Shown here: piece after piece, positions 23,697 through 60,369 of the stretch | How positions within the stretch are numbered: the first letter of the stretch is position 1 | Layout: every line of letters begins with the position of its first letter | Source: a virus | Direction: 5' to 3' (one strand) | DNA length: 64,000 bases | Virus record (IMG/VR): IMGVR_UViG_3300019360_000001 | Notes under the pieces: model-generated | The model's input: only the letters and a program-made list of their open reading frames with translations | Told to the model about the DNA's origin: nothing | Databases searched by the model: none | Made by a program: the position numbers and the translations under genes

Positions 23697-24301
23697 TAAT
23701 TCCTCAGTATAACTAATGGCCTAATTCTAAATAGTAATTTGGCTTCTATTTTTTCTTTTATTACTGGGCCAAAATTTCTACAATCGTAAGACATTGGCCT
23801 ATTGTCACCCATCATAAAATATTCATTTTCTTCAAGTTTCCAAAATTTACTAGTTTCATTTTCTGGTAATTTAGTTTCATAATTTATTATGTTACTATTA
23901 CTCTCTGGAATTGTATTGACAAATACTCTGCCATTTGATATTAGTACAAAGTCTCCTGGAATACCTATAACTCTTTTTATAAGATATATATAAGACGATA
24001 GTCTGTCATTTCCTGTAAAACAAACTATATCTCCTCTTTCAATTTTCTCAAACTTAAGTTGCACAAGTATTCTGTCACCATTCATTATAGATGGGAACAT
24101 GCTAGGGCCAACTACTTTGGAAATTTTAGGGTCATATATCTTTTTTAAGACCAAAATGGGCAGTATACAAACTAACACTAATAAAAAGAAACTTATTACA
24201 AAAGAAGTAATAGATAAATTCTTTTTTTCTATCATGTAAGGTAAATTTCCCCATTTGGGAACTGAAAATTTCTTTGTGTTTTTGCCTAATTTATTTTTCA
24301 T
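23696..24301 (-). CDS. lepB: Signal peptidase I
   Basis: TM helix, GPSMFP (catalytic Ser), IKRVIGIPGD (catalytic Lys) and GDNR..S.D.R.FGP. Confidence 0.92.
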   Translation of the reverse strand: MKNKLGKNTKKFSVPKWGNLPYMIEKKNLSITSFVISFFLLVLVCILPILVLKKIYDPKISKVVGPSMFPSIMNGDRILVQLKFEKIERGDIVCFTGNDRLSSYIYLIKRVIGIPGDFVLISNGRVFVNTIPESNSNIINYETKLPENETSKFWKLEENEYFMMGDNRPMSYDCRNFGPVIKEKIEAKLLFRIRPLVILRN

Positions 24302-24473
24302 AATATAAATCCTTCATTTTATTTTTACAGTTTTCTTTAAAAGTTACAGTAGTTGTAATAACCCCTGATTTATGGTTTGCTATATATTGTTAGCAGTTAC
24401 TACATAAACAATATTCGAAGTTGTTATATGATACTAAGTATCTCAAATTATCATTATGGCATTTAATGGGCAT
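24291..24473 (-). pseudogene. Small C-terminal-tag family member with an in-frame TAA
   Basis: MPIKCHNDNLRYLVSYNNFEYCLCSNC*QYIANHK...KMKDLYYEK*; the internal stop is at 24390-24392. Confidence 0.6.
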
Positions 24474-24681
24474 AATATATTCCTATCATTGCACATTTAT
24501 GGGAATGTGGATTTGGTGAACGACTTAATAATCCTATAAATTCCTGTTTACATTTGCAGCAAGTTAACATTGATGGAATATTATCAAGAATCTGCATGTT
24601 GGACCATTTAGTTGGCGGCATCAGATAACCTGTAGGTGCTATTCTTAAATAGTCTTCATTAATAGACATATTTTGTATCAA
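24463..24681 (-). CDS. Small Zn-finger protein, C-terminal tag GIYYAH
   Basis: CCKC...HKC; shares the C-terminal motif. Confidence 0.6.
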   Translation of the reverse strand: MIQNMSINEDYLRIAPTGYLMPPTKWSNMQILDNIPSMLTCCKCKQEFIGLLSRSPNPHSHKCAMIGIYYAH

Positions 24682-25127
24682 AATCTTATCCTATACATAA
24701 ACATAAGGTCAGTTTCTAGGTCTGAATTTAAAGAACTTCTTAAAGAAAAATTGTCAATGGTTAATTTTGCCTTTATTTTGTTTCCATTTATACCGATATC
24801 TAGATCAACAAGATCTTTGTGTTCCGAAAAACTATTTTTATTATCTTTTTCAACGCTGTTAATCAAGAATCTTAGATGCCCTCTATTATCTATAAAAAAA
24901 CTGTCAAATTTTATCATTTTTAATCTAATGTTTCTGGACCGATAATTTCTTATTTGGCTTAATCTTTTTTGATATAAGTCATACGACATACTAAAATCTT
25001 GTTCAAATTCATCCTTCACAATAGATCTAGAAAAAGAGATAATCTCTTTGTTTATTTGATAAGTTATAAAGTCATGCAAAGCACTATTATTGATCTCTAT
25101 AGATGAACATGAAGTAAGTAAAAACAA
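24678..25127 (-). CDS. Hypothetical protein, possible lipoprotein
   Basis: LLTSC lipobox-like sequence at the N-terminus; true start is probably a few codons upstream. Confidence 0.5.
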   Translation of the reverse strand: MFLLTSCSSIEINNSALHDFITYQINKEIISFSRSIVKDEFEQDFSMSYDLYQKRLSQIRNYRSRNIRLKMIKFDSFFIDNRGHLRFLINSVEKDNKNSFSEHKDLVDLDIGINGNKIKAKLTIDNFSLRSSLNSDLETDLMFMYRIRF

Positions 25128-25141
25128 TAGAAAAAATTTCT

Positions 25142-26847: not shown

Positions 26848-26913
26848 TATTGCTATCCTATCTTGACACTAGGCTAGCTGTATAATTACTCCCGCCTATT
26901 ATATTAATCTAAA

Positions 26914-27342: not shown

Positions 27343-27350
27343 AAACCCTC

Positions 27351-28002: not shown

Positions 28003-28614
28003 TCAAATCATCGCATTAAAATGTTTTTTAAAAACAGATGTTAAATTTGCCTTTAGCTTTTTTATTTCTATTGTTTTTTTCATTTTTGGCAATAAACCAG
28101 TAATTACATAGCTATTTATTTCCTCTATAAAGTCTCTTTTCATGTATCCTTGTTCTCTTAATGCATTTTTAATATTTCTTAGGCCAAACTTCCTTATTAC
28201 TTTATTTACATCTTTTCTATAGTTTTCATACAAGTCATAATGAGCATGTACAAGTTCATGCCTAATAGTTTCCAGATCATTTTTTAATGTAACAATAATA
28301 GAATACTTATTATTTATATTAAGCCTTTTTAGTTTATTAAAAATCCATTTTTCGTCTTTGGATAAAGATCTCTTAAAAACTTTATAAAATTTATACATCT
28401 CTAAAGATGGAATAGTAAATCCTACATTTAAATCCATGTAATCAAACTTACCATGTTTATCGATATAGTCACCAATAAAATCATTAACTTTAAAATATTT
28501 ACAGTCAAATTCTACTATTCGCATAAAAGCCATACACATTTTATGCTGATTATTAAACTCGAAGTGATAAATAGGAAAATTTCCTAGTTTGTGTACTTTG
28601 CAAAATTTATTCAT
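28003..28614 (-). CDS. HExxH-motif protein
   Basis: IRHELVHAHY...EEINSY. Confidence 0.6.
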   Translation of the reverse strand: MNKFCKVHKLGNFPIYHFEFNNQHKMCMAFMRIVEFDCKYFKVNDFIGDYIDKHGKFDYMDLNVGFTIPSLEMYKFYKVFKRSLSKDEKWIFNKLKRLNINNKYSIIVTLKNDLETIRHELVHAHYDLYENYRKDVNKVIRKFGLRNIKNALREQGYMKRDFIEEINSYVITGLLPKMKKTIEIKKLKANLTSVFKKHFNAMI

Positions 28615-32604: not shown

Positions 32605-33741
32605 TTATAACAAATTAACAAGTTTTGAGTCATTATTATCTTTATTTATATCTTTACTAGTTAGTTTTACGGCATATTTATTGTTACCTAAGTAACAAAT
32701 TATTTTATTTAATACCATTTTGTCTAAAGTTTTACGAAGATGGCCGAAATTTGGCATTTGCCCAGTTTTTTCACAAGTATTAGCCAATTCTTTAAAAGTC
32801 ATTTCACTTTTAGATAGGGTATTATATATAATTTGCTCAAAAGAAGACATTTGCATTACATTAATATTATTAAATACTATTAAATCATCAAACATTTCAT
32901 TTATTAAGGTTTGCGCACCTTTATCCGTATTTAAATTTTCTACGCCAAAAAACCTTTTAACGAACAAAAATATATCATGTGCCAACCATGCGTTCCTAAA
33001 CTGAGAACTTTCTTTATCTATTATATGTTCTGATTTTATTTCCCATTTGGATTTTAATAGAAGTATTTCATCTGGGCTTAAACTACTATAATTTTCCTTG
33101 CATAAACTTTCTTTAATTATTTGCCAGTTACATTTAGCCGATGAAGGCTCTAATATTTGTCCTATTAAGTCTTCCTTATCGCTACTATTTTTTGCTTTAA
33201 CAACAACAAATCTATCAAGCACAGCGCATATATGCTCTAATTGATTTGGTTTATTTGGGATATTGATTCCATTAGTTGCCGCCAGAACTAGGCCATTAAA
33301 TTGAACTGGTTCTATATTTCTATGTTTTGGCTTTATTATTTCGCCATTACCTATTTGTTTAAGTACATGTATATGCTGTTTAGTTTCAAGAGAAAATTCA
33401 TCAATAAAAATGATTGAGTTATTATAACATTCGAGAGTTTCGTATATACCGATTCCAGTAGAAGCTCCTGCCGAGGATATCCATCTAGCTACTTTTTGCC
33501 CATATTTATTCTCACTGCCTAGACCCAATCCTTCATAAATTGATTTTAACAATTGGGTTTTACCTGATCCTGCACGCCCTAATAATAGCACATGTCGGTT
33601 TCCATCGTGAAACACTCTTCCGATGCGGTTAAATAAGCCAGCCTTATGCTCCATGCGGGCTTTAATCGCCATAATCACCGCAAGCGGCAGACTTTTTTGG
33701 TCGCAAATTTTATTTATTTCGCCAATTAGATTAGACAGCAT
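32605..33741 (-). CDS. AAA+ ATPase with C-terminal winged helix
   Basis: Walker A GRAGSGKT, Walker B IFIDE, sensor ATN, Arg finger LDRF; wHTH-like tail. Confidence 0.8.
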   Translation of the reverse strand: MLSNLIGEINKICDQKSLPLAVIMAIKARMEHKAGLFNRIGRVFHDGNRHVLLLGRAGSGKTQLLKSIYEGLGLGSENKYGQKVARWISSAGASTGIGIYETLECYNNSIIFIDEFSLETKQHIHVLKQIGNGEIIKPKHRNIEPVQFNGLVLAATNGINIPNKPNQLEHICAVLDRFVVVKAKNSSDKEDLIGQILEPSSAKCNWQIIKESLCKENYSSLSPDEILLLKSKWEIKSEHIIDKESSQFRNAWLAHDIFLFVKRFFGVENLNTDKGAQTLINEMFDDLIVFNNINVMQMSSFEQIIYNTLSKSEMTFKELANTCEKTGQMPNFGHLRKTLDKMVLNKIICYLGNNKYAVKLTSKDINKDNNDSKLVNLL

Positions 33742-33979
33742 AATATATACCGCTCATTTTATTAATATAATAATATATGGGCAAAAATTTACGATAACAT
33801 TTCGCACAAAGAAAACAATAAGAAACATCATTTTTACAGTTTATACAAGTTCCATATGTCCATCGCCCAAACATCGCAATAGCTATATGTTGTAAACAAT
33901 CAATACATTTACAACAATACTTGCTATCGGTGTAAATATCTTCTCTAAAAATATCTCTGCAACCAGCACAAGTATTCAT
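33731..33979 (-). CDS. Cys-rich small protein, tag GIYYAV
   Basis: Four CxxC pairs; paralog of 58120..58326. Confidence 0.7.
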   Translation of the reverse strand: MNTCAGCRDIFREDIYTDSKYCCKCIDCLQHIAIAMFGRWTYGTCINCKNDVSYCFLCAKCYRKFLPIYYYINKMSGIYYAV

Positions 33980-34227
33980 AATATATAGTATATACCTTTA
34001 AATTTACAACCATAATGTGTGATAGGCAAATTTTTACCATAACAAGAATTACATAAAATAGATTCATCCATTAGATCGTTGCAATTAAAACAACGATTCT
34101 CTCCCACCTTTAAATTAAACTTTATCAAATGAAGTTTACTTCGCAATAGTAAATTCCAACATTCATCACAATAGTTATCATTGTTAACTGTAATGTTGTG
34201 CCCACAAGAACAATATTTTTTATCCAC
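33976..34227 (-). CDS. Cys-rich small protein, tag GIYYIL
   Basis: CxC plus three CxxC; paralog of 58323..58559. Confidence 0.7.
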   Translation of the reverse strand: MDKKYCSCGHNITVNNDNYCDECWNLLLRSKLHLIKFNLKVGENRCFNCNDLMDESILCNSCYGKNLPITHYGCKFKGIYYIL

Positions 34228-35667: not shown

Positions 35668-36104
35668 ACGATATTACGCTTTTTTAACTCCTTGATAGCC
35701 CTGGACAAAGAAATCTTACAGCCAATAGATTTATTAAACTGATCTTTAATAGAACAAAAGGAAAAACCTTCTGTGATAAGTTCTTTTTTATCATTTACAA
35801 TTCTACATTTAGTTAAGGCAATAGCATCAACAACAAAAAGTCTTGGTATTACTAATCTATTAATTACAAAATAACTATTTGGATGCCTTAAATAGTCCTT
35901 AACTTGACCAGACTCATAGGCTTTAATTTTATGCTCTGACAAAATATTATAAAAATCATCATGTATATCTTCTCTAAAGTGAGAAAATAAAGCCCTAAAC
36001 TTTTCTCCTGTTTCCGTCACAATAAAAGTCCTCATTAAAACTTTACCTCCTGTAATAAATTCCTTTGTACCTATAACTTGCATTTCTTGCCAATATTTTA
36101 ACAA
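35640..36104 (-). CDS. Hypothetical phage protein
   Basis: C-terminal G.S.CS.KD.FNK.IG.KISL.RA motif common in phages. Confidence 0.6.
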   Translation of the reverse strand: MLKYWQEMQVIGTKEFITGGKVLMRTFIVTETGEKFRALFSHFREDIHDDFYNILSEHKIKAYESGQVKDYLRHPNSYFVINRLVIPRLFVVDAIALTKCRIVNDKKELITEGFSFCSIKDQFNKSIGCKISLSRAIKELKKRNIVCQKIEYQE

Positions 36105-36357
36105 AATTATCTTCTGGCAAGTCTTTTGTTCTATTTTCTATTTCTTCTTTTATATAACCATAAATAAAATGGTATTTATCAATATAAATATGAAAATGTA
36201 AGTGATAAAAAGGACCCCTATGTATTTTATCTCTTGTGTTTAAGAGATGTGAAAGTTTCATATCAATAAGAAGAATTTTTTTGCCATCTTTTGTTATCCA
36301 GAATCTTTCATTAAGGGCCGATTGTTTTAGTTCTGTTAGATATAGATGTCGTGTCAT
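36043..36357 (-). CDS. Small protein, tag GIYYRR
   Basis: W.TKDG....I.DM...HL.N domain plus the shared C-terminal motif. Confidence 0.65.
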   Translation of the reverse strand: MTRHLYLTELKQSALNERFWITKDGKKILLIDMKLSHLLNTRDKIHRGPFYHLHFHIYIDKYHFIYGYIKEEIENRTKDLPEDNFVKILARNASYRYKGIYYRR

Positions 36358-36358: not shown

Positions 36359-36967
36359 TTAAAACCTATATTCTATTCCCAGTGACACAACATCGGTATT
36401 TATACCACGATTTGGTCTTGGACTACCAAATATAGAACTTCCATTTGAAAAATGCCAAACTTCATATTGCGCAAAAATAGATGTGTTTTCACTTGTTTTT
36501 AGTCCAATTCCAGGCCCTGCGCCTAAAACAAATCCCCAGTTTGTTGCTTGTTCATTAGGCTTATGATCAAAATAATGAAATCCTGCTTTTAGCGAAAAAT
36601 ACAGTTCAAAACTTTTTATTGGATATATAATTCTTGGTTTTAGGTCCAGTCCAGTTCCTATACAATCTTGTCCATTTATAGTTTGTGCTCCGCTTATTCC
36701 CAAACCAACAGCAGTTTCTATATTTTTAACTTTAAAAACTTTTGTCTCGATATAACTTGATTCATGAACTATATCTACTGGATTGCCTTTGCCGTTTCTT
36801 ATAATAGTCTTAGAAATAAAAATAGGTTTTCCAATTCCTACTTCTGTGCGACTATAGTTTTTAACTAGAAAATCTTTGTGACATCCAGATAAAAAAATAA
36901 GAAGATATATAAATTTAACTTTCATTTTTAATACCACCATTTTGGACTGTTTTCTTTCTGTTAACAT
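36359..36967 (-). CDS. pagL: PagL-like lipid A 3-O-deacylase / acyloxyacyl hydrolase beta-barrel
   Basis: Catalytic H-x-S-N (WHFSNG), NRGIN, alternating beta strands, C-terminal YRF; N-terminal LSGC (probable start 36925). Confidence 0.7.
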   Translation of the reverse strand: MLTERKQSKMVVLKMKVKFIYLLIFLSGCHKDFLVKNYSRTEVGIGKPIFISKTIIRNGKGNPVDIVHESSYIETKVFKVKNIETAVGLGISGAQTINGQDCIGTGLDLKPRIIYPIKSFELYFSLKAGFHYFDHKPNEQATNWGFVLGAGPGIGLKTSENTSIFAQYEVWHFSNGSSIFGSPRPNRGINTDVVSLGIEYRF

Positions 36968-37910: not shown

Positions 37911-38192
37911 CTACAGTCTAAAATATAGGTTTTTTAACTTGTTTGGCTTATAATATTTACTACATTCAATACATAGATAGTCTGTACGTTCCCCTCCGTA
38001 GTATGAATGGGTGTCGTTATCACATTTTTGATTAGCACACTTGTAATGTTTTTTTGAATTTTCAACCTTATCCTTATAATTTTGTCTGATTAAAATATAA
38101 CATTCATAACAATATTTGTAATCATTTCTATTCAAAAAATTACCACAAAGACATTTTCTATCTGGCATAATAAATACCACTTGTTGTGTCAC
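37911..38192 (-). CDS. Cys-rich small protein, tag NLYFRL
   Basis: CLC, CYEC, CANQKC, CIEC; probable start MPDRK at 38168. Confidence 0.7.
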   Translation of the reverse strand: MTQQVVFIMPDRKCLCGNFLNRNDYKYCYECYILIRQNYKDKVENSKKHYKCANQKCDNDTHSYYGGERTDYLCIECSKYYKPNKLKNLYFRL

Positions 38193-38391
38193 GACCCATT
38201 ATTATCAAAGATCTATTATTAATCCATCGTAACAAAGAAGGCATATTATATACATAACGTCCATTGATGTATATTTCTTCTTTATATATTTTAGTTATTT
38301 CTCCTGTATATAGAAAAGATCTATGTGTTTTTATGTTTAATTTTATTATATCACCAATTTGTATATCATCAGCACTATAAATTTTTGCCAT
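38158..38391 (-). CDS. Small SH3/KOW-like protein, tag GIYYAR
   Basis: IQIGDII...YTGEITKI; no Cys. Confidence 0.65.
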   Translation of the reverse strand: MAKIYSADDIQIGDIIKLNIKTHRSFLYTGEITKIYKEEIYINGRYVYNMPSLLRWINNRSLIIMGRDTTSGIYYAR

Positions 38392-38395: not shown

Positions 38396-38638
38396 TTAAA
38401 GCCTGTAATAAATATCTTTTATTTGTTTTTTTATTATATTTTCTATTTCTTTAACAGTTGATTTTTTGTCCATACATAATAAAAGACTGTTTAGTGATTT
38501 ATGCCCACAAACCAAACATAATTTTTTAGAAAAATCGTAATTAATTAACGAAGCAAGGTTATATAAATCTATAAAATAATAATGACAATATGTGCCGTGG
38601 TGCCATTTAGTTTCTTTGACACAATTACATTTACTCAT
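38396..38638 (-). CDS. Cys-rich small protein, tag DIYYRL
   Basis: CNC...CLVC. Confidence 0.7.
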   Translation of the reverse strand: MSKCNCVKETKWHHGTYCHYYFIDLYNLASLINYDFSKKLCLVCGHKSLNSLLLCMDKKSTVKEIENIIKKQIKDIYYRL

Positions 38639-38886
38639 TTAAAGAAATAAATACCTGAAACTTCTTTAATAATTGATTCTTTTATTTTTACTAAAGAAGG
38701 AGCTGTCTCAAAACAAGCGTGACAAATTAATCTAAAATCTTGTTTTCTACAGAAGATACAATTTTTACGTACTCCCATCCAGCCATGATCTGCATATAGC
38801 AAAGGATATATTTCTTTCCAACAGTCTTCGCAATAATAACTTGTTTTGTTTTTATTTTTATTACACGAACATATATTTTTATTCAT
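38635..38886 (-). CDS. Cys-rich small protein, tag GIYFFK
   Basis: CSC, CEDC, CIFC, CHAC. Confidence 0.7.
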   Translation of the reverse strand: MNKNICSCNKNKNKTSYYCEDCWKEIYPLLYADHGWMGVRKNCIFCRKQDFRLICHACFETAPSLVKIKESIIKEVSGIYFFK

Positions 38887-39107
38887 AGAAGATAATAAAG
38901 GTCAACGAGCCTGTACTTATTAGTTAATTTTTTAGCTGGAATTTTTAAAGCATAACATTTGTCGCACAGTACAGCCTTAACAACAATTGAAGTTCTACAA
39001 TTTATACATATTCTCTGTAATGTATGTTCGGCATGTTTTTCTATCATCTTCCAGCAATCTACACAATAGACACAACCACGTTTTTCACATTCTTCACATG
39101 TATTCAT
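38883..39107 (-). CDS. Cys-rich small protein, tag DLYYLL
   Basis: CEEC, CVDC, CINC, CDKC. Confidence 0.7.
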   Translation of the reverse strand: MNTCEECEKRGCVYCVDCWKMIEKHAEHTLQRICINCRTSIVVKAVLCDKCYALKIPAKKLTNKYRLVDLYYLL

Positions 39108-39335: not shown

Positions 39336-39602
39336 TTATAGCCTGAAATATAATCCGTTGTATTGATTGAATATTATAAGTTTCATATTTCTTATTGTTA
39401 ATTTTCTATTATAACACTTTTTACAAAAATAAACATCGACATATGATTTTAAAAACACATGTTCAATCTCAACACGACATAAAATACATGTTTTGTAATC
39501 AATAAATTCCAGGTTTTTATCAATAAAATCTAAAAGTTCATCTATGCAAACGTTGCAATAAATATTTTCGATAGCTATATCTTGGCAAAAACATTTGCTC
39601 AT
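39336..39602 (-). CDS. Cys-rich small protein, tag GLYFRL
   Basis: CFC, CNVC, CILC, CKKC. Confidence 0.7.
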   Translation of the reverse strand: MSKCFCQDIAIENIYCNVCIDELLDFIDKNLEFIDYKTCILCRVEIEHVFLKSYVDVYFCKKCYNRKLTIRNMKLIIFNQYNGLYFRL

Positions 39603-39874
39603 AATAGATAATAAATGTCATTTAACTTTTTTGTTATTTTTGATATAATTTCTTCACTCGTCATTTTTTGAGCAATACATTTTTCGCATAATACTAAGTT
39701 GTCAATTGATTTATATTTTTTGTCGCCACAAACACAACATCCGTTGCTAATTCCCTCAAATGAATAACAAGCTGATTGTATTTCTGTAACGCATATTTTA
39801 CATAAACCCAATCCGTCAATAATTGAACTTCTTTCGCATGGACATGGAAAATCAGATAACATAATAAATTCCAT
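39599..39874 (-). CDS. Cys-rich small protein, tag DIYYLL
   Basis: CPC, CKIC, CCVC, CEKC. Confidence 0.7.
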   Translation of the reverse strand: MEFIMLSDFPCPCERSSIIDGLGLCKICVTEIQSACYSFEGISNGCCVCGDKKYKSIDNLVLCEKCIAQKMTSEEIISKITKKLNDIYYLL

Positions 39875-40105
39875 GCATTTTTAAACTATAAGATTCTAAA
39901 ATTTCATTTGTAGAAAGATTTTTTAGCATACATTTTGCACAAAATATTCACAATATTTCAAATGATCATCTAAAGAAATTTTACAAACTAAGCATTTATT
40001 TTTAATATTACTTTTTAAAATAAAATTGTCTAGAATTGACATACATTTTTTACAATAAATATATTTAAATCTATTGGTATTTACTACGCAAGTACAAAAA
40101 CTCAT
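39852..40105 (-). pseudogene. Frameshifted Cys-rich protein, tag GIYYVI
   Basis: MSFCTC...CKKC...CLVC...YCEYF, then after a 1-nt shift in a T run CAKCMLKNLSTNEILESYSLKMHGIYYVI*. Confidence 0.65.
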
Positions 40106-40182
40106 AATAAATAGTAAATACATTGTTCATGATAATAACTTGAACATTCTTTTTTACAAATAAAGCACATAGTATTTTTCAT
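40102..40182 (-). CDS. 26-aa mini member, tag CIYYLL
   Basis: MKNTMCFICKKECSSYYHEQCIYYLL*, ATGA-coupled on both sides. Confidence 0.55.
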   Translation of the reverse strand: MKNTMCFICKKECSSYYHEQCIYYLL

Positions 40183-40400
40183 AAGATGTAATATACTCCC
40201 TGTGTCTTATTTCTGGCATTTTCTAGTAATTTTGCGGTTTTAATCTCTGATGAATATTGCCAAAAATTATCACAACATGTAATGCACATTTTCTGTATTT
40301 CATTGTTTAATACAAAACTGCAATATTTTATGACGTTTGTATAACAAAAAAAACATTTTCCTTCATCGCTAATATTATGACCAGTATGTCTATTTAGCAT
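40179..40400 (-). CDS. Cys-rich small protein, tag GVYYIL
   Basis: CFFC...CITC. Confidence 0.65.
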   Translation of the reverse strand: MLNRHTGHNISDEGKCFFCYTNVIKYCSFVLNNEIQKMCITCCDNFWQYSSEIKTAKLLENARNKTQGVYYIL

Positions 40401-40647
40401 AATATAACCCGGACATAAAAGTATTTTTTCTTTTTATGATATCTTCAATTGTCCAAGATAGTTTAATACATTTATCTATACATTTTTCACACATATAGTT
40501 ATAAAATTGATTGGCTTCGTGAAGACATAGTGAACATATTGGATCCTTTGGATCTAAAATACTTGTTAGATGTTTCCAACAACCTGTACAAAAAGGATAA
40601 TCCCATGTATAGGGAATGTTAATTTTACAATTGTTGCATTTATTCAT
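40390..40647 (-). CDS. Cys-rich small protein, tag GLYYAK
   Basis: CNNC, CTGC, CSLC, CEKC; ATGA-coupled to the vWA gene. Confidence 0.7.
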   Translation of the reverse strand: MNKCNNCKINIPYTWDYPFCTGCWKHLTSILDPKDPICSLCLHEANQFYNYMCEKCIDKCIKLSWTIEDIIKRKNTFMSGLYYAK

Positions 40648-43679: not shown

Positions 43680-44767
43680 GCTTGCTCCTTTTTGGTATTA
43701 TTATTAAAAGTTAACGAATTAATAACATTATCTATTAAATCACCGTCGAATGCGGAAATAGCAATGGGAGACGTTTCTAGAACTGTATACATCATTTGTG
43801 CAATATCATCTGTTGTATTTTCCACTATACTGGCAAATATTTCAGTGGAAGTTGGATCTTTGGAATAGGTTGATATTATCTTCATGTTTGCCGCATGGGT
43901 CAATATCCAGTCCATCGGCATCATATCTAATCCGCTAGAAATATTTCTATTAATAGCAGTGATTTTTAGATGGTATGCTTTATTTATTTTTTCTTTAGTG
44001 TCGGCATATTTGATAGCCAATGTCTTCAAACATTCAGACAAAGTTTCTACTTTCGTAGCATTTCTTTTCCTAGTCCCAAAAAACCTCATCATTCCTTCAA
44101 TTGTCAGTTGAGGAATTATTTTATAGCTAATTTGTTTCCTCAATTTAGAAGAATCAGTTTCAGAAATACCATGAACCTCATAATAAGGGAACATTCTGCC
44201 AGGAATATTCATCCTATTAATGATTTTGGTTTCATATTTTTCTATGCCTTCTATTGGCATAATAATCGTTTCTACGGGATTTGAGAATAGTAAGTTTGTT
44301 GTTTTTGTTGTGTTTTTTGATACGTCTTTGATATTTAATGCAAACTCTTCTCCAGAAATATCAAGCGTATAATCTTGTTTATTGTAAGTATATTTTGAAT
44401 CATTTTTTAAAAATGTAAATAATTCAGTAGTGTCTATGGCTTTGTCTTTATTTTTATATCTAGAAACAATAGAATTAAACTCATTAAGAGGATGTTCTTT
44501 TGACTTTACAGAAATCTCCTCTTCTATTTTTGTCAAATTATCTATAGTCAATATTTGACTATCTTTGACCAAGATGAACAATGGATGGTCTGGAAACTGT
44601 CGTAACCATGTAAACTTTGGAATATCAATATTAACAAAACGGGGAAGACTATCAGGATCTTTGCTTGGTAAGTTGCCCGATAAATCAGAAGATTTTATTT
44701 TTAGTATTTTAAAATCTTTCTCATTCATCAAAACATCGCCACGGACGTTCGACATCGTAAACAGCAT
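43676..44767 (-). CDS. Hypothetical protein, first large gene of the MoxR operon
   Basis: SD AAAGGAG; ATGA-coupled to the ATPase. Confidence 0.7.
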   Translation of the reverse strand: MLFTMSNVRGDVLMNEKDFKILKIKSSDLSGNLPSKDPDSLPRFVNIDIPKFTWLRQFPDHPLFILVKDSQILTIDNLTKIEEEISVKSKEHPLNEFNSIVSRYKNKDKAIDTTELFTFLKNDSKYTYNKQDYTLDISGEEFALNIKDVSKNTTKTTNLLFSNPVETIIMPIEGIEKYETKIINRMNIPGRMFPYYEVHGISETDSSKLRKQISYKIIPQLTIEGMMRFFGTRKRNATKVETLSECLKTLAIKYADTKEKINKAYHLKITAINRNISSGLDMMPMDWILTHAANMKIISTYSKDPTSTEIFASIVENTTDDIAQMMYTVLETSPIAISAFDGDLIDNVINSLTFNNNTKKEQA

Positions 44768-45013
44768 TTAAATCTCCTTTATTAAATTAAACAAAACTCT
44801 TGTACCCACATTTTACACAAACGTAAACATTTTCTCTAGTTCTTTTTGAATAATAACAATGGGCGAAAGAATGTTTACAGTCTGTTGGGTTTAAAATAAC
44901 CCCTTTCTTTTCTCCTGCTTCCCTGTCCTTGCCCCTGTTTTTATTTTTATCTTTGGGCAAAAATTCTCCTTGTTTAAAAAGGTTTGGGATATGGTCTCGG
45001 ACGCCTAACCGGA

Positions 45014-45281: not shown

Positions 45282-45488
45282 TTATAAGTTATAATAAATA
45301 CCATTATAATTTTTTTTGGATATTGTTCCATTTTCTATTAGCTCTGAAAAAAATTTTTCTGTCCTTTTATAGATATATAGTTTGTTAGCAATATCAACAA
45401 AATGAACTAATCCATTTTTGCAGTTAGTTATAACAAATAGACGTTCACCATATAAATATTTAAAAACAGTTCCAACTGGGTAATTCAT
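45282..45488 (-). CDS. Small SH3-like protein, tag GIYYNL
   Basis: YPVGTVFKY...; shared C-terminal motif. Confidence 0.65.
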   Translation of the reverse strand: MNYPVGTVFKYLYGERLFVITNCKNGLVHFVDIANKLYIYKRTEKFFSELIENGTISKKNYNGIYYNL

Positions 45489-45718
45489 CGGACGAAATAA
45501 AGCCCTACATAAAAGCTGCGAGAAATCATTTCTTTTTCAAAGAAACTTGCATGCTTTCCCAAACAATCAGTGCAAGTATACCATCCTGGTTTGTTTTTAC
45601 AATTTTTACCTGGACATCTTTTTTTATATTGTTTATAAGCACACATTACTTCAAGGCATTTGCCACAATAAACTTGTCCTATTCTTAGCTTTTCTTTAAA
45701 GCACATTGTACATTTCAT
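45485..45718 (-). CDS. Cys-rich small protein, tag GLYFVR
   Basis: CTMC, CGKC, CPGKNC, CTDC. Confidence 0.7.
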   Translation of the reverse strand: MKCTMCFKEKLRIGQVYCGKCLEVMCAYKQYKKRCPGKNCKNKPGWYTCTDCLGKHASFFEKEMISRSFYVGLYFVR

Positions 45719-47051: not shown

Positions 47052-47294
47052 TTAGATCTCATAGTATATTCCTTTTGTCAATAAACTAGGATCTATTAAA
47101 TCAATTTCATCTAAAGTATATCCGTGGCTATGACAACAATAAACAATAGTTAGGTTTTTGCAGCCTTTAACTGGACATTTTTTAAAAGTTCTAGAAAAGA
47201 AGGCCATTTTATTTAAACAATTTCTACAAAACGTATTAGAACTACGTTCTCCGCAGCATCCTTTAACTTTACATTTATTCATTTTTAAAAACAT
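47052..47294 (-). CDS. Cys-rich small protein, tag GIYYEI
   Basis: CKVKGC, CRNC, CPVKGC, C..H. Confidence 0.7.
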   Translation of the reverse strand: MFLKMNKCKVKGCCGERSSNTFCRNCLNKMAFFSRTFKKCPVKGCKNLTIVYCCHSHGYTLDEIDLIDPSLLTKGIYYEI

Positions 47295-48056: not shown

Positions 48057-49556
48057 TTACATTTTTTTAGCATAATCTGACAGCAAAAATTCTTTTCCGT
48101 GCAATTTAACAATCATTCTTCCCAATCTTTCACTCCATCTTTCTACAGAGGGCTTAATAACAATTCCTTCTCTATTATGGCAACCATTACCGATTATTGT
48201 TGGGCCATCTGCTAGTTGTTCTACTTGTTCAAATGATATTAATGGGCCACGATAGATTATTGGAACCGAATTAAATTCTAATTTATCGAAAATAAACTTA
48301 GCATCATCATAGTTTAAGTATTTTCCCTTCGTAATATCAAAGATATCAAAAAATGCTACTTTACATAAATTTGGATGACCATAATGGTATTTGTTTCCTG
48401 CTTGAGTTTTACCATATAGCTCGCCAAAAAACAAGAGATTAGGATAATTTGCTAATTTTTCCCCAATATTATTTTCTCTAGCCCACTTAGACCATTCATT
48501 ATTGTCTTCGTTTTCCTTAGCTAGTCTATGAGAACCCACCCATAAATCATTATCCACGTATGAAAATCTAGCGTTGGAATTATGTACCAAAATATCTGGA
48601 CAAAAGAAATTATTAGTTTCGGTTTCTATATCATATTTACTAGATTTTATTTTATATGTAACATCTGTTATGGATATAATTTCTTGTTCTATTGTAATTC
48701 TTTTGTATTCTAACTGTATAGGCGTGAGCGATAAATCATTTCTTATGCCAGATACTTTATCATTAACATTTAAATCTTTTAATTCTTTATATGAATCAAT
48801 ACTAGGACAATAAAATTTATGATTTGGTGTTGCAACTACCTTGGAAAATGAATTTCCCTTCCCCAATCCTCTTCTTTTAGTTTTTATTTCAAGCCATTTA
48901 TTACATTTTCCATTATTAAATGTATTTAAAACCTTAGATGGAATGATGTTTCTATTATTATCTTGTCCTAAAACATATTCTCCTATTTTTATTTTATTAA
49001 TAGGTTTACTTGTTCCATCTGCCATCCTTATTCTTTGATTAGATTTTAAACATCCATGGATTTTTTCTGTAAAAATAACCTCTTCTCCAAGAGTGAATTC
49101 TTTAATATATTTTCTAGCACTTTCAATATCTGTGTACAATGAGAACCATGCTGGACTTTTTCTATTTTTGCCACTCATATTGCAAGGTTCTACCGGATCA
49201 GGAGACTTAACAGCTCCTAGAATTTCGGCAACATTAGTCCCAACTTCTTTATCTTCTAGGCCAAATAATTTGACTGGCATTATAATTCCCATAGAAAATA
49301 TCCCACGTAGCTTTTTGGCCTTGATAGTTCTTTGTCGTTCGCTTGGATTTTCTCTGTTTTGCCAAATAAATGCAAATTCTGGCTTAATTGGCAACATTGC
49401 ATCAACTGGGAAATATATTGCTTTGTCACCTTCTTGAAATTCACCTAGTTTGAATATTACAGGGAATTGATATACATGAGTAATTCCAAGAGTATCAGCT
49501 TCGGGATGTTTGCCCCATTTCCCTACTTTAATTATCTCAACTATTAATGTACTCAT
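48057..49556 (-). CDS. ATP-dependent RNA ligase (DRB0094/Rnl5-like) with intein
   Basis: N-terminal OB domain (HPEADTL...GDKAIYFPVDA...KLRGIFSMG), motif I TEKIHG/SN, FGELYG, FFDI and REGIVIK. Confidence 0.88.
   Translation of the reverse strand: MSTLIVEIIKVGKWGKHPEADTLGITHVYQFPVIFKLGEFQEGDKAIYFPVDAMLPIKPEFAFIWQNRENPSERQRTIKAKKLRGIFSMGIIMPVKLFGLEDKEVGTNVAEILGAVKSPDPVEPCNMSGKNRKSPAWFSLYTDIESARKYIKEFTLGEEVIFTEKIHGCLKSNQRIRMADGTSKPINKIKIGEYVLGQDNNRNIIPSKVLNTFNNGKCNKWLEIKTKRRGLGKGNSFSKVVATPNHKFYCPSIDSYKELKDLNVNDKVSGIRNDLSLTPIQLEYKRITIEQEIISITDVTYKIKSSKYDIETETNNFFCPDILVHNSNARFSYVDNDLWVGSHRLAKENEDNNEWSKWARENNIGEKLANYPNLLFFGELYGKTQAGNKYHYGHPNLCKVAFFDIFDITKGKYLNYDDAKFIFDKLEFNSVPIIYRGPLISFEQVEQLADGPTIIGNGCHNREGIVIKPSVERWSERLGRMIVKLHGKEFLLSDYAKKM
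48579..49052 (-). mobile_element. Mini-intein (158 aa) in RNA ligase motif I
   Basis: KIHG/CLKSNQRI...TPNHKF...KYDIETETNNFF..ILVHN/SNARF. Confidence 0.9.
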
Positions 49557-50793: not shown

Positions 50794-51105
50794 CTAGTCA
50801 ATAAAATAAAGTCCTCTCATTGTCGGTTTATCAGTTAAATTTGCTTCTAAAACATTACATGAAGACATCTCAATAATCTTACCATGAATATCGTTAATGA
50901 AACATTTTTCATAAAAACGTATAGTACATATGTAAGAAGATTTTAATTTTTTATTTGTGAATCTTGCTATTTTTTTTGCTCCAATTAATTTTTTCGATGA
51001 ATAATAGTCAAACGCATTTTTATAATGGGTTATTATTCCTTTAATACCTTTATTTGTTCCCCCAGTAAAATATACTGTTTGCCCAATTTTAAATTTTGGC
51101 TCCAT
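50794..51105 (-). CDS. KOW/SH3-like protein, tag GLYFID
   Basis: PKFKIGQTVYFTGG.NKG.KG. Confidence 0.65.
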   Translation of the reverse strand: MEPKFKIGQTVYFTGGTNKGIKGIITHYKNAFDYYSSKKLIGAKKIARFTNKKLKSSYICTIRFYEKCFINDIHGKIIEMSSCNVLEANLTDKPTMRGLYFID

Positions 51106-53050: not shown

Positions 53051-53391
53051 ACGCCATCTTTAAAAACTTCGATCTTTAAATTTTCTGGACTCATAGACTC
53101 TTCAACTTCTTGTTCAACGGTTTTTTTATTGAGTATTTCATAAACCTTTCTATGCCACCATATCTTAAACTTTGGATTATTTACTAGCGTATTAAGAGCA
53201 TCTTTGATATTTCGACTTTTTTCTCTGTGATTTTGCCCGGTACTTCTTGCTCCGCTTTCAGGATGATGTATTCTTACACAATTTTTACATTTATTTCTAT
53301 GTTGGCCTCCCGGACCATGGCCAGAAAAATAACTTATTTCTAGATCATTTTTTGACACTGTAAATAGCAATTCTTTTTTTGGGCTATTCAT
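53029..53391 (-). CDS. Peptide chain release factor-like GGQ-domain protein
   Basis: GHGPGGQHRNK...VRIHHPESGA...R...N...A. Confidence 0.85.
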   Translation of the reverse strand: MNSPKKELLFTVSKNDLEISYFSGHGPGGQHRNKCKNCVRIHHPESGARSTGQNHREKSRNIKDALNTLVNNPKFKIWWHRKVYEILNKKTVEQEVEESMSPENLKIEVFKDGVWTKWID

Positions 53392-53705
53392 CGATTATAG
53401 TAGATCCCATCCATTCTATTTGGGTCTGAAAAAGAAGTTCTTTGGAAAAGATAATCATGCTCTGGTTTTCTTTGCCAACTAGTTATTTTTTTTGCCCATT
53501 GAATACGTACAAAATCTGATGATGACTCAATAATTGTTCCATTTATATGCAAATCGCCTTTTTTATAAATTACTTTATCGCCAATCACTAGTTTTGTTTT
53601 ATAATTCATAAAAAATGGTAGACCGGCTTGGTAATGCTCCAAGTGGAACTGAGATATAAGCTCAGTGGATGGACTTCCTTCCTCCCGGTCTACTATTATA
53701 TCCAC
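53388..53705 (-). CDS. SH3-like protein, tag GIYYNR
   Basis: LVIGDKVIY...GTII...VRIQW. Confidence 0.6.
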   Translation of the reverse strand: MDIIVDREEGSPSTELISQFHLEHYQAGLPFFMNYKTKLVIGDKVIYKKGDLHINGTIIESSSDFVRIQWAKKITSWQRKPEHDYLFQRTSFSDPNRMDGIYYNR

Positions 53706-55920: not shown

Positions 55921-56274
55921 TTAGCTTATAAAATAAAGCCCAAAATGCTTTCGATGTATTTTATACAATAATTCGCCCACCAAAACTGATGGATTATAAC
56001 ATAATCCACAAAGTTTAATCACATCAAATATTTCTTTTTTAATGCATTTGCCACAAATTAAACAGCTTGGTTTATACACCTTTCTTATATTGGAATGGGA
56101 AAAAACCTCTGCTATTTTACAATAGCATACATAACAATGCATGTGTGTATTGATATCAGCATGATAAAATGCTGTATTTTCTCCGCAAGAACATTTATTC
56201 AATGTTTTTCCTTTTCTATAGACGAAAATGTTCCTAGTTACATCATAATTTATAGTAAACATCCTTTCTAGCAT
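55921..56274 (-). CDS. Cys-rich small protein, tag GLYFIS
   Basis: CSC, CYVC, CLIC, CGLC. Confidence 0.65.
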   Translation of the reverse strand: MLERMFTINYDVTRNIFVYRKGKTLNKCSCGENTAFYHADINTHMHCYVCYCKIAEVFSHSNIRKVYKPSCLICGKCIKKEIFDVIKLCGLCYNPSVLVGELLYKIHRKHFGLYFIS

Positions 56275-56473
56275 TTTTCCATTTTTCTATTAATATTTCA
56301 CTAGGAATTAATTCTTTAGAAGCACAAGCAGTACAAAACACGAGATAATAAAGTGGAATATTTTTTTCACATATTAAACACACTTTGATAAGATTTTTTT
56401 GTTTTAAAGCTAAAAGTGCATCAGAACAATTGTAGCAATAACGCCCAGTTTTATAGCAATAACATTTATTCAT
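56243..56473 (-). CDS. Cys-rich small protein, tag DVYYKL
   Basis: CYC, CYNC, CLIC, CTAC. Confidence 0.7.
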   Translation of the reverse strand: MNKCYCYKTGRYCYNCSDALLALKQKNLIKVCLICEKNIPLYYLVFCTACASKELIPSEILIEKWKNARKDVYYKL

Positions 56474-56483
56474 ATTTATTAAT

Positions 56484-58104: not shown

Positions 58105-58119
58105 TGCATTTATTAGCTC

Positions 58120-58326
58120 TTATAACCAGTGATAAAGTCCATTCATTTTTTTTGAATAATAACTGACAGGTAAAAATTTTCTAATGCATATATCACATAA
58201 AAAATAATTACAGTTTATTTTACAATCTATACATTTCCAATCATTGGAATGCCAAAATATATCCCATAACGTACTGGAGCATTTGTAACAATGAACAAAA
58301 TCTTCACACTTATTACAATTATTCAT
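58120..58326 (-). CDS. Cys-rich small protein, tag GLYHWL
   Basis: Four CxxC pairs; paralog of 33731..33979. Confidence 0.7.
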   Translation of the reverse strand: MNNCNKCEDFVHCYKCSSTLWDIFWHSNDWKCIDCKINCNYFLCDICIRKFLPVSYYSKKMNGLYHWL

Positions 58327-58559
58327 ATTATATAGTAAATCCCTTTTAATTTGCCACTATAATATGTTAGTGGCAAGTTTTTCTTGTAACAAGACGAACA
58401 TAAAATATGATCGCCATACATGTTTTTAATGCCACAATTTAAGCAAATTGTATCTTCATCAAAAAACCTCGCTTCATGAATTGTAACTAGATGGTTCCAA
58501 CAATAATCGCAATAGTTTGCATTGTTATTTAAAATATTGTTCCCACAAGTGCATTTCAT
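58323..58559 (-). CDS. Cys-rich small protein, tag GIYYII
   Basis: Paralog of 33976..34227. Confidence 0.7.
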   Translation of the reverse strand: MKCTCGNNILNNNANYCDYCWNHLVTIHEARFFDEDTICLNCGIKNMYGDHILCSSCYKKNLPLTYYSGKLKGIYYII

Positions 58560-59353
58560 ATAATAAATCCAGTTGAATCTTTGGCATGTCCCTTTACGGA
58601 CAGACCTATTATAATTCCTTTTTTGTCAAGTGGTCTAAAGTCTATTAGATCACCATTAACAACTTCATATCCCAAATAACCATTTTTAATTGCCGACTCA
58701 TGGTCTTTAAATACCATGGCGACATTTTTGCCTGCATTTAATATTCTTTTGCAAGTTTCTTCATTGTCTTCTGACCTAGAAAAAGTCAAATGATAATTTG
58801 TTGGCAAAACTTTGTAAAGTCTGCTTTCTATTTTCGTATAATCGTAAAATGCTATGTCAGGAAATTCTGTAAACAATTCAGGCATTATTTCTTCATACAG
58901 AATATCCGAAGTTCCATTTAATCTCACGGATCCTTTTAGACCTAATGATTTTGCCCTAGTTCTAAACTTATATAATTCGTCCATTAACATTTTCTTAAAC
59001 AAATCACGTCTATAGACGAACAATAAAGTTTTCCAAGCCTTTGAATTTCTGCCTGTTGTAACTCTTAGTCTGTAGGACTTTATTCCTAAACAGGCAAGAG
59101 AACATCCAAGAGATGCAAATGGGCAAATATTTCGGCCACCATAAGTAATTGACTCAGATGAAGGCGCAAGATAAACAATAGACGTTAAGAATCCTCTTTT
59201 TAGATTCTTTTGAACTTTTGTTGAAGTTCCAAGGATATTAATTTTTGCAGTAGGAAATCTAATGCGCCTTGCCCTGTATAATTGTCCTTTCGTAATCCTA
59301 TTGGCCTTATAGGCCTTTATTACTTCGTGCATTACTAGTTTACGTAAATTCAT
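58556..59353 (-). CDS. Gp88-like radical-SAM-type phage protein
   Basis: YLAP...CPFAS.GC...CL...VRLNGTSDI...FYDYTK...YHLTFSRSE. Confidence 0.75.
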   Translation of the reverse strand: MNLRKLVMHEVIKAYKANRITKGQLYRARRIRFPTAKINILGTSTKVQKNLKRGFLTSIVYLAPSSESITYGGRNICPFASLGCSLACLGIKSYRLRVTTGRNSKAWKTLLFVYRRDLFKKMLMDELYKFRTRAKSLGLKGSVRLNGTSDILYEEIMPELFTEFPDIAFYDYTKIESRLYKVLPTNYHLTFSRSEDNEETCKRILNAGKNVAMVFKDHESAIKNGYLGYEVVNGDLIDFRPLDKKGIIIGLSVKGHAKDSTGFII

Positions 59354-59366
59354 ATTCTCCTATTAG

Positions 59367-60179
59367 TTAAATATCTATATATTCTAACTCATTCAAACAA
59401 ATAAACTTAGTGCCCTTAATGTTTACTGTTAATGATTTATGCCAATGGCCAAAAATATGTAATTTCGGCCTATGAAATTCAAACATCGCTTGTAATAGTT
59501 GCCCCGTCCTAGTTTTAATAATCTTTTTGCCCAAAATCCCAATTCCATTGTTTACCATGAAGTCTTTTACTTCGTCCGGACAATCATGGGACAGCATAAT
59601 ATCAGGTTTTGCGTTTTTGTAAGATTCAAGTGCCCAATAAGAACTTTCCATTGAAAGTTCTTCTGTCGGCCACCAATCTATTCCTTCTTTTCTAAAGCTT
59701 TTATCAATTGAAAAAGCCCCACGAACAAAGAAAAATTCTACGCCACCCCTTATTAAATGTCCATAATCCCCCATGGCATTTGGACAATCATTATAAAGAT
59801 AATAATTTTCGTGGTTTCCAGCGAAAAACCTATGATTATTTCGACTCAACTTATAATGTTCAAAATGCTCGTATGAAAGTCCATGATCTCCGATTTGAAC
59901 TGTAAAATAACCTTTTTGTTCTGCATCTTGACAGATTTTGACATAATCTTTATATTTCCCGTGAACATCACCAATTATACGCAAAGTCATTTTACATGCC
60001 TCCATTATTCTAAGCATTTTACAATGTGTAATAAATATCGTCCATTTGTGAAATTCTTTCGGCAGCTCTTTTAAGAATGCAAACTCTATCAGAAGCAGAT
60101 GATCCTTTGGGCCAATTATGTACATTACCAAGTTGAAATTGGCCATATTTAATAGGACATGTAATTTCTGCCCATCCAT
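59367..60179 (-). CDS. Calcineurin-like metallophosphoesterase
   Basis: IGDVHG, QIGD, GNHE, SHDCP and FGHWH motifs; true start probably MTLRIIGD near 59990. Confidence 0.9.
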   Translation of the reverse strand: MDGQKLHVLLNMANFNLVMYIIGPKDHLLLIEFAFLKELPKEFHKWTIFITHCKMLRIMEACKMTLRIIGDVHGKYKDYVKICQDAEQKGYFTVQIGDHGLSYEHFEHYKLSRNNHRFFAGNHENYYLYNDCPNAMGDYGHLIRGGVEFFFVRGAFSIDKSFRKEGIDWWPTEELSMESSYWALESYKNAKPDIMLSHDCPDEVKDFMVNNGIGILGKKIIKTRTGQLLQAMFEFHRPKLHIFGHWHKSLTVNIKGTKFICLNELEYIDI

Positions 60180-60369
60180 CCCAAATATTTAATGGAATAT
60201 TATTAAAATTTTGGTCAATCTTATACTTATCCCTTATTAATTTTCTAGGCATTTTAATTATTCTTGCAACTTTAGCTAATCCTCCCATTTGCTCAATGAA
60301 AGAATCATCCTTTGCATTAAAATTTTCGTTCATATAGAATTTTATTGAGGATTTCATGAACTTGCTCAA
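60019..60369 (-). CDS. Phage protein with tag DIYYTL
   Basis: D.NFNNIPL..WD...S.SD.VC.LK.AA domain followed by the shared motif. Confidence 0.65.
   Translation of the reverse strand: MSKFMKSSIKFYMNENFNAKDDSFIEQMGGLAKVARIIKMPRKLIRDKYKIDQNFNNIPLNIWDGWAEITCPIKYGQFQLGNVHNWPKGSSASDRVCILKRAAERISQMDDIYYTL

Follow-up and report, generated by a model that had tools for sequence, protein, structure and literature searches.

Analysis of a 64,000-nucleotide stretch of an uncultured phage genome (IMG/VR record IMGVR_UViG_3300019360_000001; this whole stretch is called the window below) showed that at least 31 small accessory proteins, five of them encoded just beyond the window, end in the same peptide, with the consensus [K/R]-[M/L/Y/F]-x-[G/D]-[I/L/V]-Y-[Y/F]-x-x-COOH. 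This tail is best explained as a portable, C-terminally anchored short linear docking peptide that is read by one common partner, a reading to which we assign a probability of about 0.6. The motif and its statistics, the selection on the peptide, its modularity, and its distribution among lineages are shown by the data, and binding and its consequences are inferred. The common partner, which may be a host or a phage protein, would recognize the aliphatic-Tyr-aromatic core together with the chain end, and this would explain why the stop always follows exactly two codons later. The variable bodies would bind different targets, and through the constant tail every carrier would be attached to the same machine or site, as in adaptor families that have a common handle.

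The phage genome is about 150 kb long. In the window, all genes lie on the minus strand and the GC content is about 31%. The first 24 kb hold the replication module (DNA polymerase, exonuclease, primase, DnaB-like helicase, and UvsX-like recombinase), and the region from 24 to 61 kb is densely packed with small accessory genes, about one-fifth of which carry the tail. The accessory block also encodes a MoxR ATPase, an HExxH/vWA protein, an intein-bearing RNA ligase, a uracil-DNA glycosylase, a dCMP deaminase, and a PagL-like outer-membrane barrel. Megablast of the window against phage records gave no match; a 153.9-kb ENA contig and IMG/VR fragments, at 93 to 99% identity, belong to the same lineage. 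The contig of a close relative shows the five further carriers in tandem just past the right edge of the window, where they open a divergent unit. Their lengths are 35, 86, 90, 106, and 103 amino acids (aa), and none is Cys-rich.

The motif stands at a fixed distance from the chain end

The preliminary description of this DNA had listed 26 open reading frames (ORFs) ending in the motif. All 26 ends were confirmed on the minus strand at their left coordinates, although three of the listed entries (24291, 39852, and 40102) are not intact genes and a fourth (58120) is intact but deviant. The strict pattern [GDN][ILV]Y[YF]..-stop closed 25 stop-to-stop segments on the minus strand compared to two on the plus strand. 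It was found on 22 intact genes out of 128, compared to a mean of 0.028 and a maximum of 2 in within-protein shuffles, so the enrichment, for which a check against shuffled controls had been proposed, is real. The cysteine-free carriers alone account for 6 of 111 genes, compared to 0.024 expected (P = 2.7e-13). The four-residue core occurred 4 times among 18,395 internal positions. In every carrier the distance from the core to the stop is exactly two codons, as first noted; distances of 0, 1, or 3 to 7 codons were never seen. A position-specific scan of the window picked out "G-aliphatic-aromatic-aromatic" at offset 2 with p = 1e-41.

Across the 31 carriers the conserved part spans about 9 residues. 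It begins with [K/R] at position -9 and [M/L/Y/F] at -8, where Met is found in 11 of the 31 compared to a background of 2.6%, followed by a Lys-rich position -7. Position -6 is Gly in 23 carriers, Asp in 6, Asn in 1, and Cys in 1, and position -5 is Ile in 18, Leu in 10, and Val in 3. The Tyr at -4 is invariant (31 of 31), and -3 is Tyr in 23, Phe in 7, and His in 1. Position -2 accepts any residue, and the last one is Leu in 15, Arg in 6, Lys in 3, and Ile in 3, with Asp, Ser, His, and Val making up the rest. The tail is absent from every window protein of at least 135 aa and from every recognizable enzyme there, which bears out the earlier remark that no such enzyme carries it.

Selection acts on the peptide

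Several observations place the constraint on the peptide. First, the wobble positions are free. The relative entropy of the Gly codon was 1.91, 1.32, and 0.03 for bases 1, 2, and 3, respectively, and the Tyr codons of the tail were used at 20 TAT to 6 TAC, compared to 80:20 genome-wide. Second, the carriers end in all three stop codons (TAA 11, TGA 11, and TAG 4), which rules out stop-codon reassignment. Third, the junctions to the next gene are of all kinds (n = 23), with 7 ATGA overlaps, 7 other overlaps, and gaps of 0 to 15, 16 to 60, and more than 60 nucleotides (nt) in 4, 3, and 2 cases, respectively. The mild excess of ATGA overlaps is due to tandem duplication, since 10 of the 23 carriers precede another carrier. 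Finally, a comparison of strains with 91 to 99% identity showed 1 substitution (V to I) among 44 core positions, compared to 3 among 22 at the two end positions and 34 among 889 in the bodies. The free wobble bases, the three stop codons, and the varied junctions mean that selection acts on the peptide and not on a ribosome-binding site (RBS) or another nucleic-acid signal; an RBS, a promoter, or a coupling element is ruled out by the free wobble positions and the varied junction types. The preliminary description had noted the synonymous codon variation and the shifting register of the next start codon and had placed the constraint at the protein level rather than in an RBS alone, and all three statements held. 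The length stayed constant despite the randomized wobble positions, an indication that the distance to the chain end is itself under selection.

The same data bear on a nascent-peptide effect at termination, in which the tail would stall the ribosome or couple termination to re-initiation of the next gene. The exact two-codon spacing would suit such an effect, as would the tightly packed operons in which many carriers lie, with ATGA overlaps at 7 of 23 junctions. However, the two residues nearest the peptidyl-transferase center vary freely, all three stop codons are used, every junction type occurs, including gaps of more than 60 nt, and the equivalent motif of one relative (L024, described below) lies 4 to 46 residues from the stop. 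This explanation is therefore disfavored and appears very improbable.

The tail is carried by zinc ribbons and by unrelated bodies

The carriers are named here by the left coordinate of their genes. BLAST placed 15 of them in one family and two more in a sister group; together with 40179 and 24463 these align over about 80 aa with four conserved Cys pairs, which agrees with the first estimate of about 20 Cys-rich carriers and six that are not. The zinc-ribbon bodies are hypervariable, with only the ligands and the tail conserved, and this suggests variable binders on a constant handle. Among the 31 carriers, about 19 are double zinc-ribbon paralogs that are lineage-specific, and at least 11 have bodies unrelated by sequence. 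An extreme example is the 35-aa carrier beyond the window, which is little more than a helix plus the tail.

Comparison of the carriers with Pfam, PHROGs, and NCBIfam gave no family above threshold. PHROGs gave no match for the zinc-ribbon family, and the best scores of the Cys-rich bodies against Pfam DZR_2/DZR were 20.6 to 21.4 bits, below the 27-bit cut-off. A profile search of the zinc-ribbon family against 1.84 billion representatives found tail-bearing matches only among this lineage's own small proteins; the 80-odd longer Cys-rich matches covered the zinc-ribbon part only, and 0 of them had the tail. The family was not found at the loci of six relatives, except for one weak tail-less match in G002, the closest distinct relative. 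For the cysteine-free carriers 53388 and 50794, no outside homologs were found in phage records. A GIY-YIG nuclease fragment, which the likeness to M-x-G-I-Y might suggest, was rejected. In that domain of about 90 aa, a YIG strand and catalytic Arg/Glu come after the GIY strand, but in the carriers the stop comes two codons past the aromatic pair, and neither the carriers nor the downstream genes have a GIY-YIG match in Pfam.

With the last 8 residues removed, nine cysteine-free carriers (six from the window and three of the five beyond it) were dissimilar to one another and unlike any window protein (best E of about 0.07 in a tiny database). This means that the carriers are not all homologous over their full length. 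An AlphaFold2 (AF2) model of the zinc-ribbon carrier 58323, built from 23 paralogs and orthologs, gave a predicted local distance difference test (pLDDT) score of 76 to 87 for the body compared to about 51 for the last eight residues, to which no secondary structure was assigned; residues 76 to 78 scored below 50. The tail is thus predicted to be no part of the zinc-ribbon fold and to be left unpacked. A Foldseek search of the PDB with this model returned no match with E of 0.001 or less. The AF2 model of the cysteine-free carrier 60019 had a mean pLDDT of 39.8, too low for use, and the ESM Atlas gave sub-0.9 leads for the cysteine-free carriers to small-barrel families and DUF5026. Pfam did not confirm these leads, so that the label "SH3/KOW-like" given at first to four carriers is no more than a lead. 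The "different folds" of the preliminary description stand to the extent that the bodies are unrelated by sequence and that two of them belong to independent families known outside this lineage.

An unpacked, hydrophobic tail could also mediate association between carriers, through strand pairing or mixed oligomers, or association with a membrane, with no dedicated partner. Its core is strongly strand-prone and hydrophobic/aromatic with Lys or Arg before it, and it is predicted to be unpacked in the monomer. The invariant Tyr at -4, the Gly/Asp turn residue, and the fixed length nevertheless point to a specific pocket, and the two terminal positions accept Arg, Lys, Glu, Asp, and Asn, which suit membrane insertion poorly. 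Self-association or membrane association therefore appears improbable.

The tail is modular

Two independent body families have homologs without the tail, which supports the view, from sequence comparison, that the tag is a module. The first is that of the cysteine-free carrier at 60019-60369 (minus strand; tail DIYYTL), whose body matches phrog_25437, a family whose members elsewhere are tail-less. It aligns with gp04 of Ralstonia phage phiAp1 (pairwise E = 1e-11) and with an ORF of a fecal phage up to the final helix, past which the two homologs continue or end differently and have no tail. The second is that of the cysteine-free carrier at 36043-36357 (minus strand; GIYYRR). Its body is homologous to a protein of the relative L025 (12587-12877; E = 1e-6) that has a motif-less end and to a protein of the relative L024 (13158-13571; E = 1e-5) that has GGIFF in its place; the L024 and L025 proteins match each other at 1e-16. 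In a three-way alignment GIYY (36043), GIFF (L024), and TKFQ (L025) share the C-terminal columns. Homologs of cysteine-free carriers that lack the tail, which the preliminary description had asked for, therefore exist for both 60019 and 36043. Its idea of a modular docking label fared well as to modularity, constraint on the peptide, and the predicted position of the tail outside the fold, but a partner was not found.

Recent recombination of 3' ends was ruled out as the source of this pattern. In the 30 nt upstream of the core, the in-register identity between cysteine-free and Cys carriers was 0.34 compared to 0.29 for coding controls, and this lack of DNA similarity argues against a recent exchange. 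The result also bears on a functionless tail, that is, either an inherited zinc-ribbon end that spread by recombination in the tandem array or a translated nucleic-acid signal (RBS, promoter, or terminator). About 19 of the 31 carriers do belong to one family, and carrier relics exist that could have donated 3' ends. However, the amino acids are fixed while the wobble positions are free, no DNA similarity is found beside the motif between cysteine-free and Cys carriers, and both the core and the exact length are preserved in at least 11 cysteine-free carriers, which are of several unrelated types. The core is also more conserved than the bodies between strains. The apparently degenerating copy at 38396 has lost zinc ligands and still has the tail. 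In addition, the equivalent motif of a relative has different codons and flanks. Passive inheritance is therefore disfavored and scarcely credible.

The tag is confined to one lineage, with a variant in one relative

Relatives were identified through homologs of the vWA protein, and the tail was looked for in the available regions of L023 and of L025 to L028. A protein of about 370 aa, the MoxR ATPase, and the HExxH/vWA protein are kept as a trio in all relatives identified. No tail was found in the examined regions of L023/G002 (52% identity), L026 (53%), L027 (46%), L028 (40%), or L025 (39%). G002 is a complete genome of 168.6 kb with terminal repeats. It showed no match to the Gly-type tail, 4 occurrences of the motif class compared to 8 expected, and no other enriched C-terminal word, and homologs were found in it for 0 of 24 carriers compared to 62 of 105 other window genes. 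An IMG/VR pattern scan for the tail with an ATGA overlap gave multiple real matches only in this lineage. A search for related loci with the 36043 family found nothing, and one with the MoxR or vWA protein found only this phage and G002. Confinement of the tag to one species-level lineage, with a variant in one relative, together with its absence from the complete G002 genome, means that the system is young or easily lost.

The one relative with a comparable motif is L024, whose vWA protein is 41% identical. Here [L/I]-S-x-G-G-[I/V]-F-F was found seven times, compared to 0.007 expected, in coding frames in every case, with Ser from both codon families and on small Cys-rich and Cys-poor proteins. 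The copies lie at 5560-17192 on the plus strand (NCBI GCA_004196295.1, SDBS01001541.1), around a Peptidase_M10 gene (14175-15368) that has no window homolog. Their distances from the protein end are 4, 4, 5, 8, 17, 26, and 46 residues, the last one being N-terminal. An unbiased k-mer scan ranked G-aliphatic-aromatic-aromatic as the top non-Cys word in both the window and L024, and nothing comparable was found elsewhere. GG[IV]FF is an equivalent of the tail and behaves as a positionally free linear motif.

This relative also bears on the possibility that the tail is a degron for a host protease (Lon, FtsH, ClpXP/ClpAP, or similar), which would make the accessory proteins short-lived and remove them after the early phase. 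Bacterial degrons are typically C-terminal peptides read with the chain end, as in the ssrA tag or the C terminus of SulA for Lon, and the tail shares this usual format and is exposed in the model. The carriers are found in the accessory blocks that lie upstream of the replication module and among the first genes of the divergent unit. However, the core is unlike known degron consensus sequences, the almost body-less 35-aa carrier is an odd candidate for timed removal, and the L024 equivalent is found N-terminally and in mid-chain as well. We therefore regard a degron as rather unlikely.

The adjacent zincin-vWA/MoxR operon is a weakened candidate partner

The operon next to the main array of carriers is the only concrete candidate partner. 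It encodes, on the minus strand, a protein with a zincin-like HExxH domain (DUF2201_N) and a vWA domain (40644-42401), a MoxR-type AAA+ ATPase (42411-43679), and a conserved third protein of 363 aa that matches no known family (43676-44767). In this special case of docking, the tag would mark the substrates of the neighboring machine. The metal ion-dependent adhesion site (MIDAS) of the vWA domain, or else the peptidase domain, would take hold of the C-terminal peptide, and remodeling, cleavage, or release of the carriers would follow.

Several features speak for this. The vWA stop codon and the start of the leading gene in an array of 11 to 12 genes overlap, and the candidate tail-binding protein encoded by the vWA gene has HEMLH, with DUF2201_N at 22.0 bits (below its cut-off of 23.2), and a complete MIDAS motif, DTSPS; the ATPase was recognized as MoxR by AAA_5, AAA_3, and bpMoxR. 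In L024, the motif-bearing genes lie downstream of its vWA gene, around the Peptidase_M10 gene. vWA domains are known to capture extended peptides, and vWA-MoxR-linked modules have been described that pair a zincin-like metallopeptidase with a small, fast-diverging protein ending in a conserved C-terminal peptide of the FxSxx-COOH, RxD, or acidic type (Kaur, Burroughs, Iyer, and Aravind, 2020, PMC7159879). The phage carriers resemble the FxSxx modules in format: small, fast-diverging proteins with the C-terminal peptide as the sole conserved part, two residues after the motif, and genes close to a zincin-like HExxH domain, a vWA domain, and a MoxR ATPase.

The differences are substantial, however. 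The motif is [GDN][ILV]Y[YF]xx and not that of an FxSxx, RxD, or acidic precursor, and five carriers gave no NCBIfam match, including to the FxSxx system models, at E up to 1. No radical-SAM/SPASM maturase was found among the annotated window proteins, and there is no AP-ATPase/TPR effector. The carriers are predicted to be folded zinc ribbons or other domains, unlike leader-type precursors, with more than 30 copies dispersed in the genome. Half of them lie far from the operon, five in the divergent unit. The operon is present in six relatives and the motif in L024 only; it is kept at 39 to 59% identity in the tag-free L023/G002, L025, L026, L027, and L028, of which G002 is complete. The candidate is weakened because tag-less relatives keep the operon, and a role of this machine as the reader of the tail seems unlikely.

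PDB sequence searches with the vWA, MoxR, and 363-aa proteins gave nothing informative. A phage-encoded partner was also looked for by presence and absence within the 64-kb window. The genes absent from G002 include 28003-28614, 58556-59353 (GP88 family), 59367-60179 (phosphoesterase), and 60593-61114, and none has a peptide-binding signature.

A small Cys-rich protein is encoded just upstream of the operon (44787-44960, minus strand). The copies in relatives (L023 6985-7206, L026 2506-2667, and L027 7316-7453) end in ...CVNCGKWLY[CI], and identity to the window copy is 52 to 64% in L023 to L026. It may be a fourth operon member.

Carrier genes and their surroundings

All carrier genes of the window lie on the minus strand. 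The main array begins at the vWA gene with the zinc-ribbon carrier 40390-40647 (GLYYAK), whose start overlaps the vWA stop. It is followed by a Cys-rich carrier at 40179-40400 (GVYYIL; GIYYLL in its ortholog P0006) and by 40102-40182, a 26-aa mini-ORF or relic that ends in CIYYLL and deviates at position -6, with Cys for Gly. Next is a frameshifted zinc-ribbon paralog at 39852-40123 ending in GIYYVI, which consists of a 5' ORF (39923-40123) and a 3' segment (39852-39947). A single-base frameshift at a T-run, immediately ahead of the last Cys pair, separates the two, and a pseudogene, an assembly error, or slippage is possible. Four intact zinc-ribbon carriers follow at 39599-39874 (DIYYLL), 39336-39602 (GLYFRL), 38883-39107 (DLYYLL), and 38635-38886 (GIYFFK), and then the apparently degenerating copy at 38396-38638 (DIYYRL), which has lost two Cys ligands compared to its ortholog P0008 with the tail intact. 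A cysteine-free carrier, 38158-38391 (GIYYAR), is embedded in the array; DUF5026 or a small barrel is a lead only for its fold. The last gene of the array is the zinc-ribbon carrier 37911-38168 (NLYFRL). Within the 3' end of the vWA gene, an out-of-frame segment of 13 codons (40660-40701, minus strand) also ends in GIYYYL-stop; such matches occur at chance level, one or two per strand.

Downstream of the array lie 36043, discussed above, and two zinc-ribbon carriers at 33976-34227 (GIYYIL) and 33731-33979 (GIYYAV), which are coupled through ATGA. Next to the replication module is a carrier with 4 Cys at 24463-24681 (GIYYAH), whose tail is kept in the 99%-identical strain G001 despite nearby substitutions. 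A relic at 24291-24389 ends in ...KMKDLYYEK-stop; it has no credible start and forms a 32-aa segment, compared to 13 aa in G001.

On the other side of the operon are the cysteine-free carrier 45282-45488 (GIYYNL), the two Cys-rich carriers of the sister group at 45485-45718 (GLYFVR) and 47052-47294 (GIYYEI), and the cysteine-free carriers 50794-51105 (GLYFID) and 53388-53705 (GIYYNR; GIYYCR in a relative). Zinc-ribbon carriers then follow at 55921-56274 (GLYFIS), 56243-56473 (DVYYKL), 58120-58326, and 58323-58559 (GIYYII, the modeled protein), and 60019 closes the series. The tail of 58120 is the deviant GLYHWL, with His at the second aromatic. The pair 58323/58120 is coupled through ATGA to a GP88-family protein (PF17338; 58556-59353, minus strand) that has no homolog in the tag-free G002.

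Some other genes of the region are of interest in their own right. A PagL-like outer-membrane beta-barrel protein is encoded at 36359-36967 (minus strand) and also in L023, L026, and L027; its presence suggests a Gram-negative host and perhaps modification of lipid A. The RNA ligase at 48057-49556 (minus strand) contains an intein (Hint/Intein_splicing matches at about residues 164 to 326), and the L023 homolog of 355 aa is intein-free. The DNA polymerase ORF (1639-6822, minus strand) is 1,727 aa long and combines two PHROG polymerase families; residues 1278 to 1333 form an additional stretch with a weak match to the terminase family phrog_17415. The ORF may be a fusion or may contain an inserted element, for example an intein. 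Past the right edge of the window, the divergent unit (L008 11124-20321, plus strand) encodes, after the five tagged genes, NADAR, PhoH, a BCS1-like AAA ATPase, thymidylate synthase, DHFR, a Macro domain protein, and an IS605 OrfB/TnpB (Cas12f-like) protein.

Comparison with other C-terminal tags

The preliminary description had seen a resemblance to HbYX/YYX proteasome-docking tails. In the HbYX motif (hydrophobic-Tyr-X-COOH) of proteasomal ATPases, the Tyr is penultimate and the terminal carboxylate is read. Both are aromatic C-terminal docking tails, but the resemblance breaks down at the defining Tyr spacing, since here the invariant Tyr is at -4 with a second aromatic at -3 and position -2 is free. 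The host is probably Gram-negative, given the PagL-like gene, and would be unlikely to have a 20S proteasome.

In T4-family phages the C-terminal tails of gp43, gp33, and gp55, hydrophobic/aromatic in nature and on unrelated proteins, bind one ring-shaped hub, the gp45 clamp. The likeness lies in several unrelated phage proteins with such a tail. A clamp-binding tail of this type was nevertheless rejected: no clamp family was found in the window, the C terminus of the DNA polymerase is unrelated, and proteins of at least 135 aa are tail-less.

Other C-terminal tags are likewise read with the chain end, namely, the peroxisomal targeting signal PTS1 (SKL-COOH, read by the Pex5 TPRs), the ClpX-binding peptide of SspB, the C-terminal tip of SSB, and ssrA. 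Like them, the phage tail is a short peptide that keeps a fixed distance from the free C terminus, sits on unrelated bodies, and would have one partner. It differs in its unrelated sequence, in its setting in a phage proteome, and in that its partner is only postulated. The hydrophobic or small last residue expected for PDZ-type or ssrA-type recognition is not the rule among the carriers.

A further parallel, in logic only, is with poxvirus ankyrin-repeat proteins that end in a PRANC/F-box-like domain and with cellular F-box and SOCS-box adaptors, all of which join variable binders to a constant C-terminal handle. There as here, a large, fast-evolving paralog family would be attached by a constant C-terminal handle to a shared machine. 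In contrast to these adaptors, the phage handle is a peptide of about 9 residues and not a folded domain, and a bacterial virus has no ubiquitin system to work with.

The docking reading and what it would mean

In sum, an exposed peptide is under selection on unrelated bodies, was gained in otherwise tail-less families, and has a free equivalent in a relative; it therefore behaves as a short linear docking motif. A number of points weigh against this interpretation. No partner was found for the tail. The strict spacing could partly reflect descent, since about three-fourths of the carriers are one paralog family with an inherited tail, and very short 3' ends might be copied without detectable DNA similarity. 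The L024 equivalent works away from the C terminus, so chain-end reading is not universal. The mixed last residues (L15, R6, K3, I3, and others) fit simple PDZ-type or ssrA-type pockets poorly, and support for "different folds" comes from sequence. Finally, the tag is missing from the closest distinct relative, whose genome is complete.

A broader proposal would be a dedicated protein-addressing system of this phage clade, in which a single partner would gather dozens of hypervariable mini-proteins, each a "bait plus common handle" adaptor for host takeover or counter-defense. We put this forward tentatively, as a possibility rather than an expectation. If true, it would by analogy be a bacterial-virus counterpart of the F-box/PRANC adaptor families or of PTS1-type sorting. 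In the papers searched, a shared tag of this kind was not described for phages, in line with the earlier statement that no such system was known.

The small accessory genes of large phages mostly have no known function and offer no handle. With a tail common to about 30 of them, experiments could start from one place: replacing YY by AA, or lengthening the C terminus, is a single change that should inactivate the entire group. Because the tag is present here, takes the form GG[IV]FF in one relative, and is absent from the closest relative, its origin and turnover are tractable by comparative genomics. If the bodies are variable binders on one handle, they would constitute a natural library of host-targeting or anti-defense modules.

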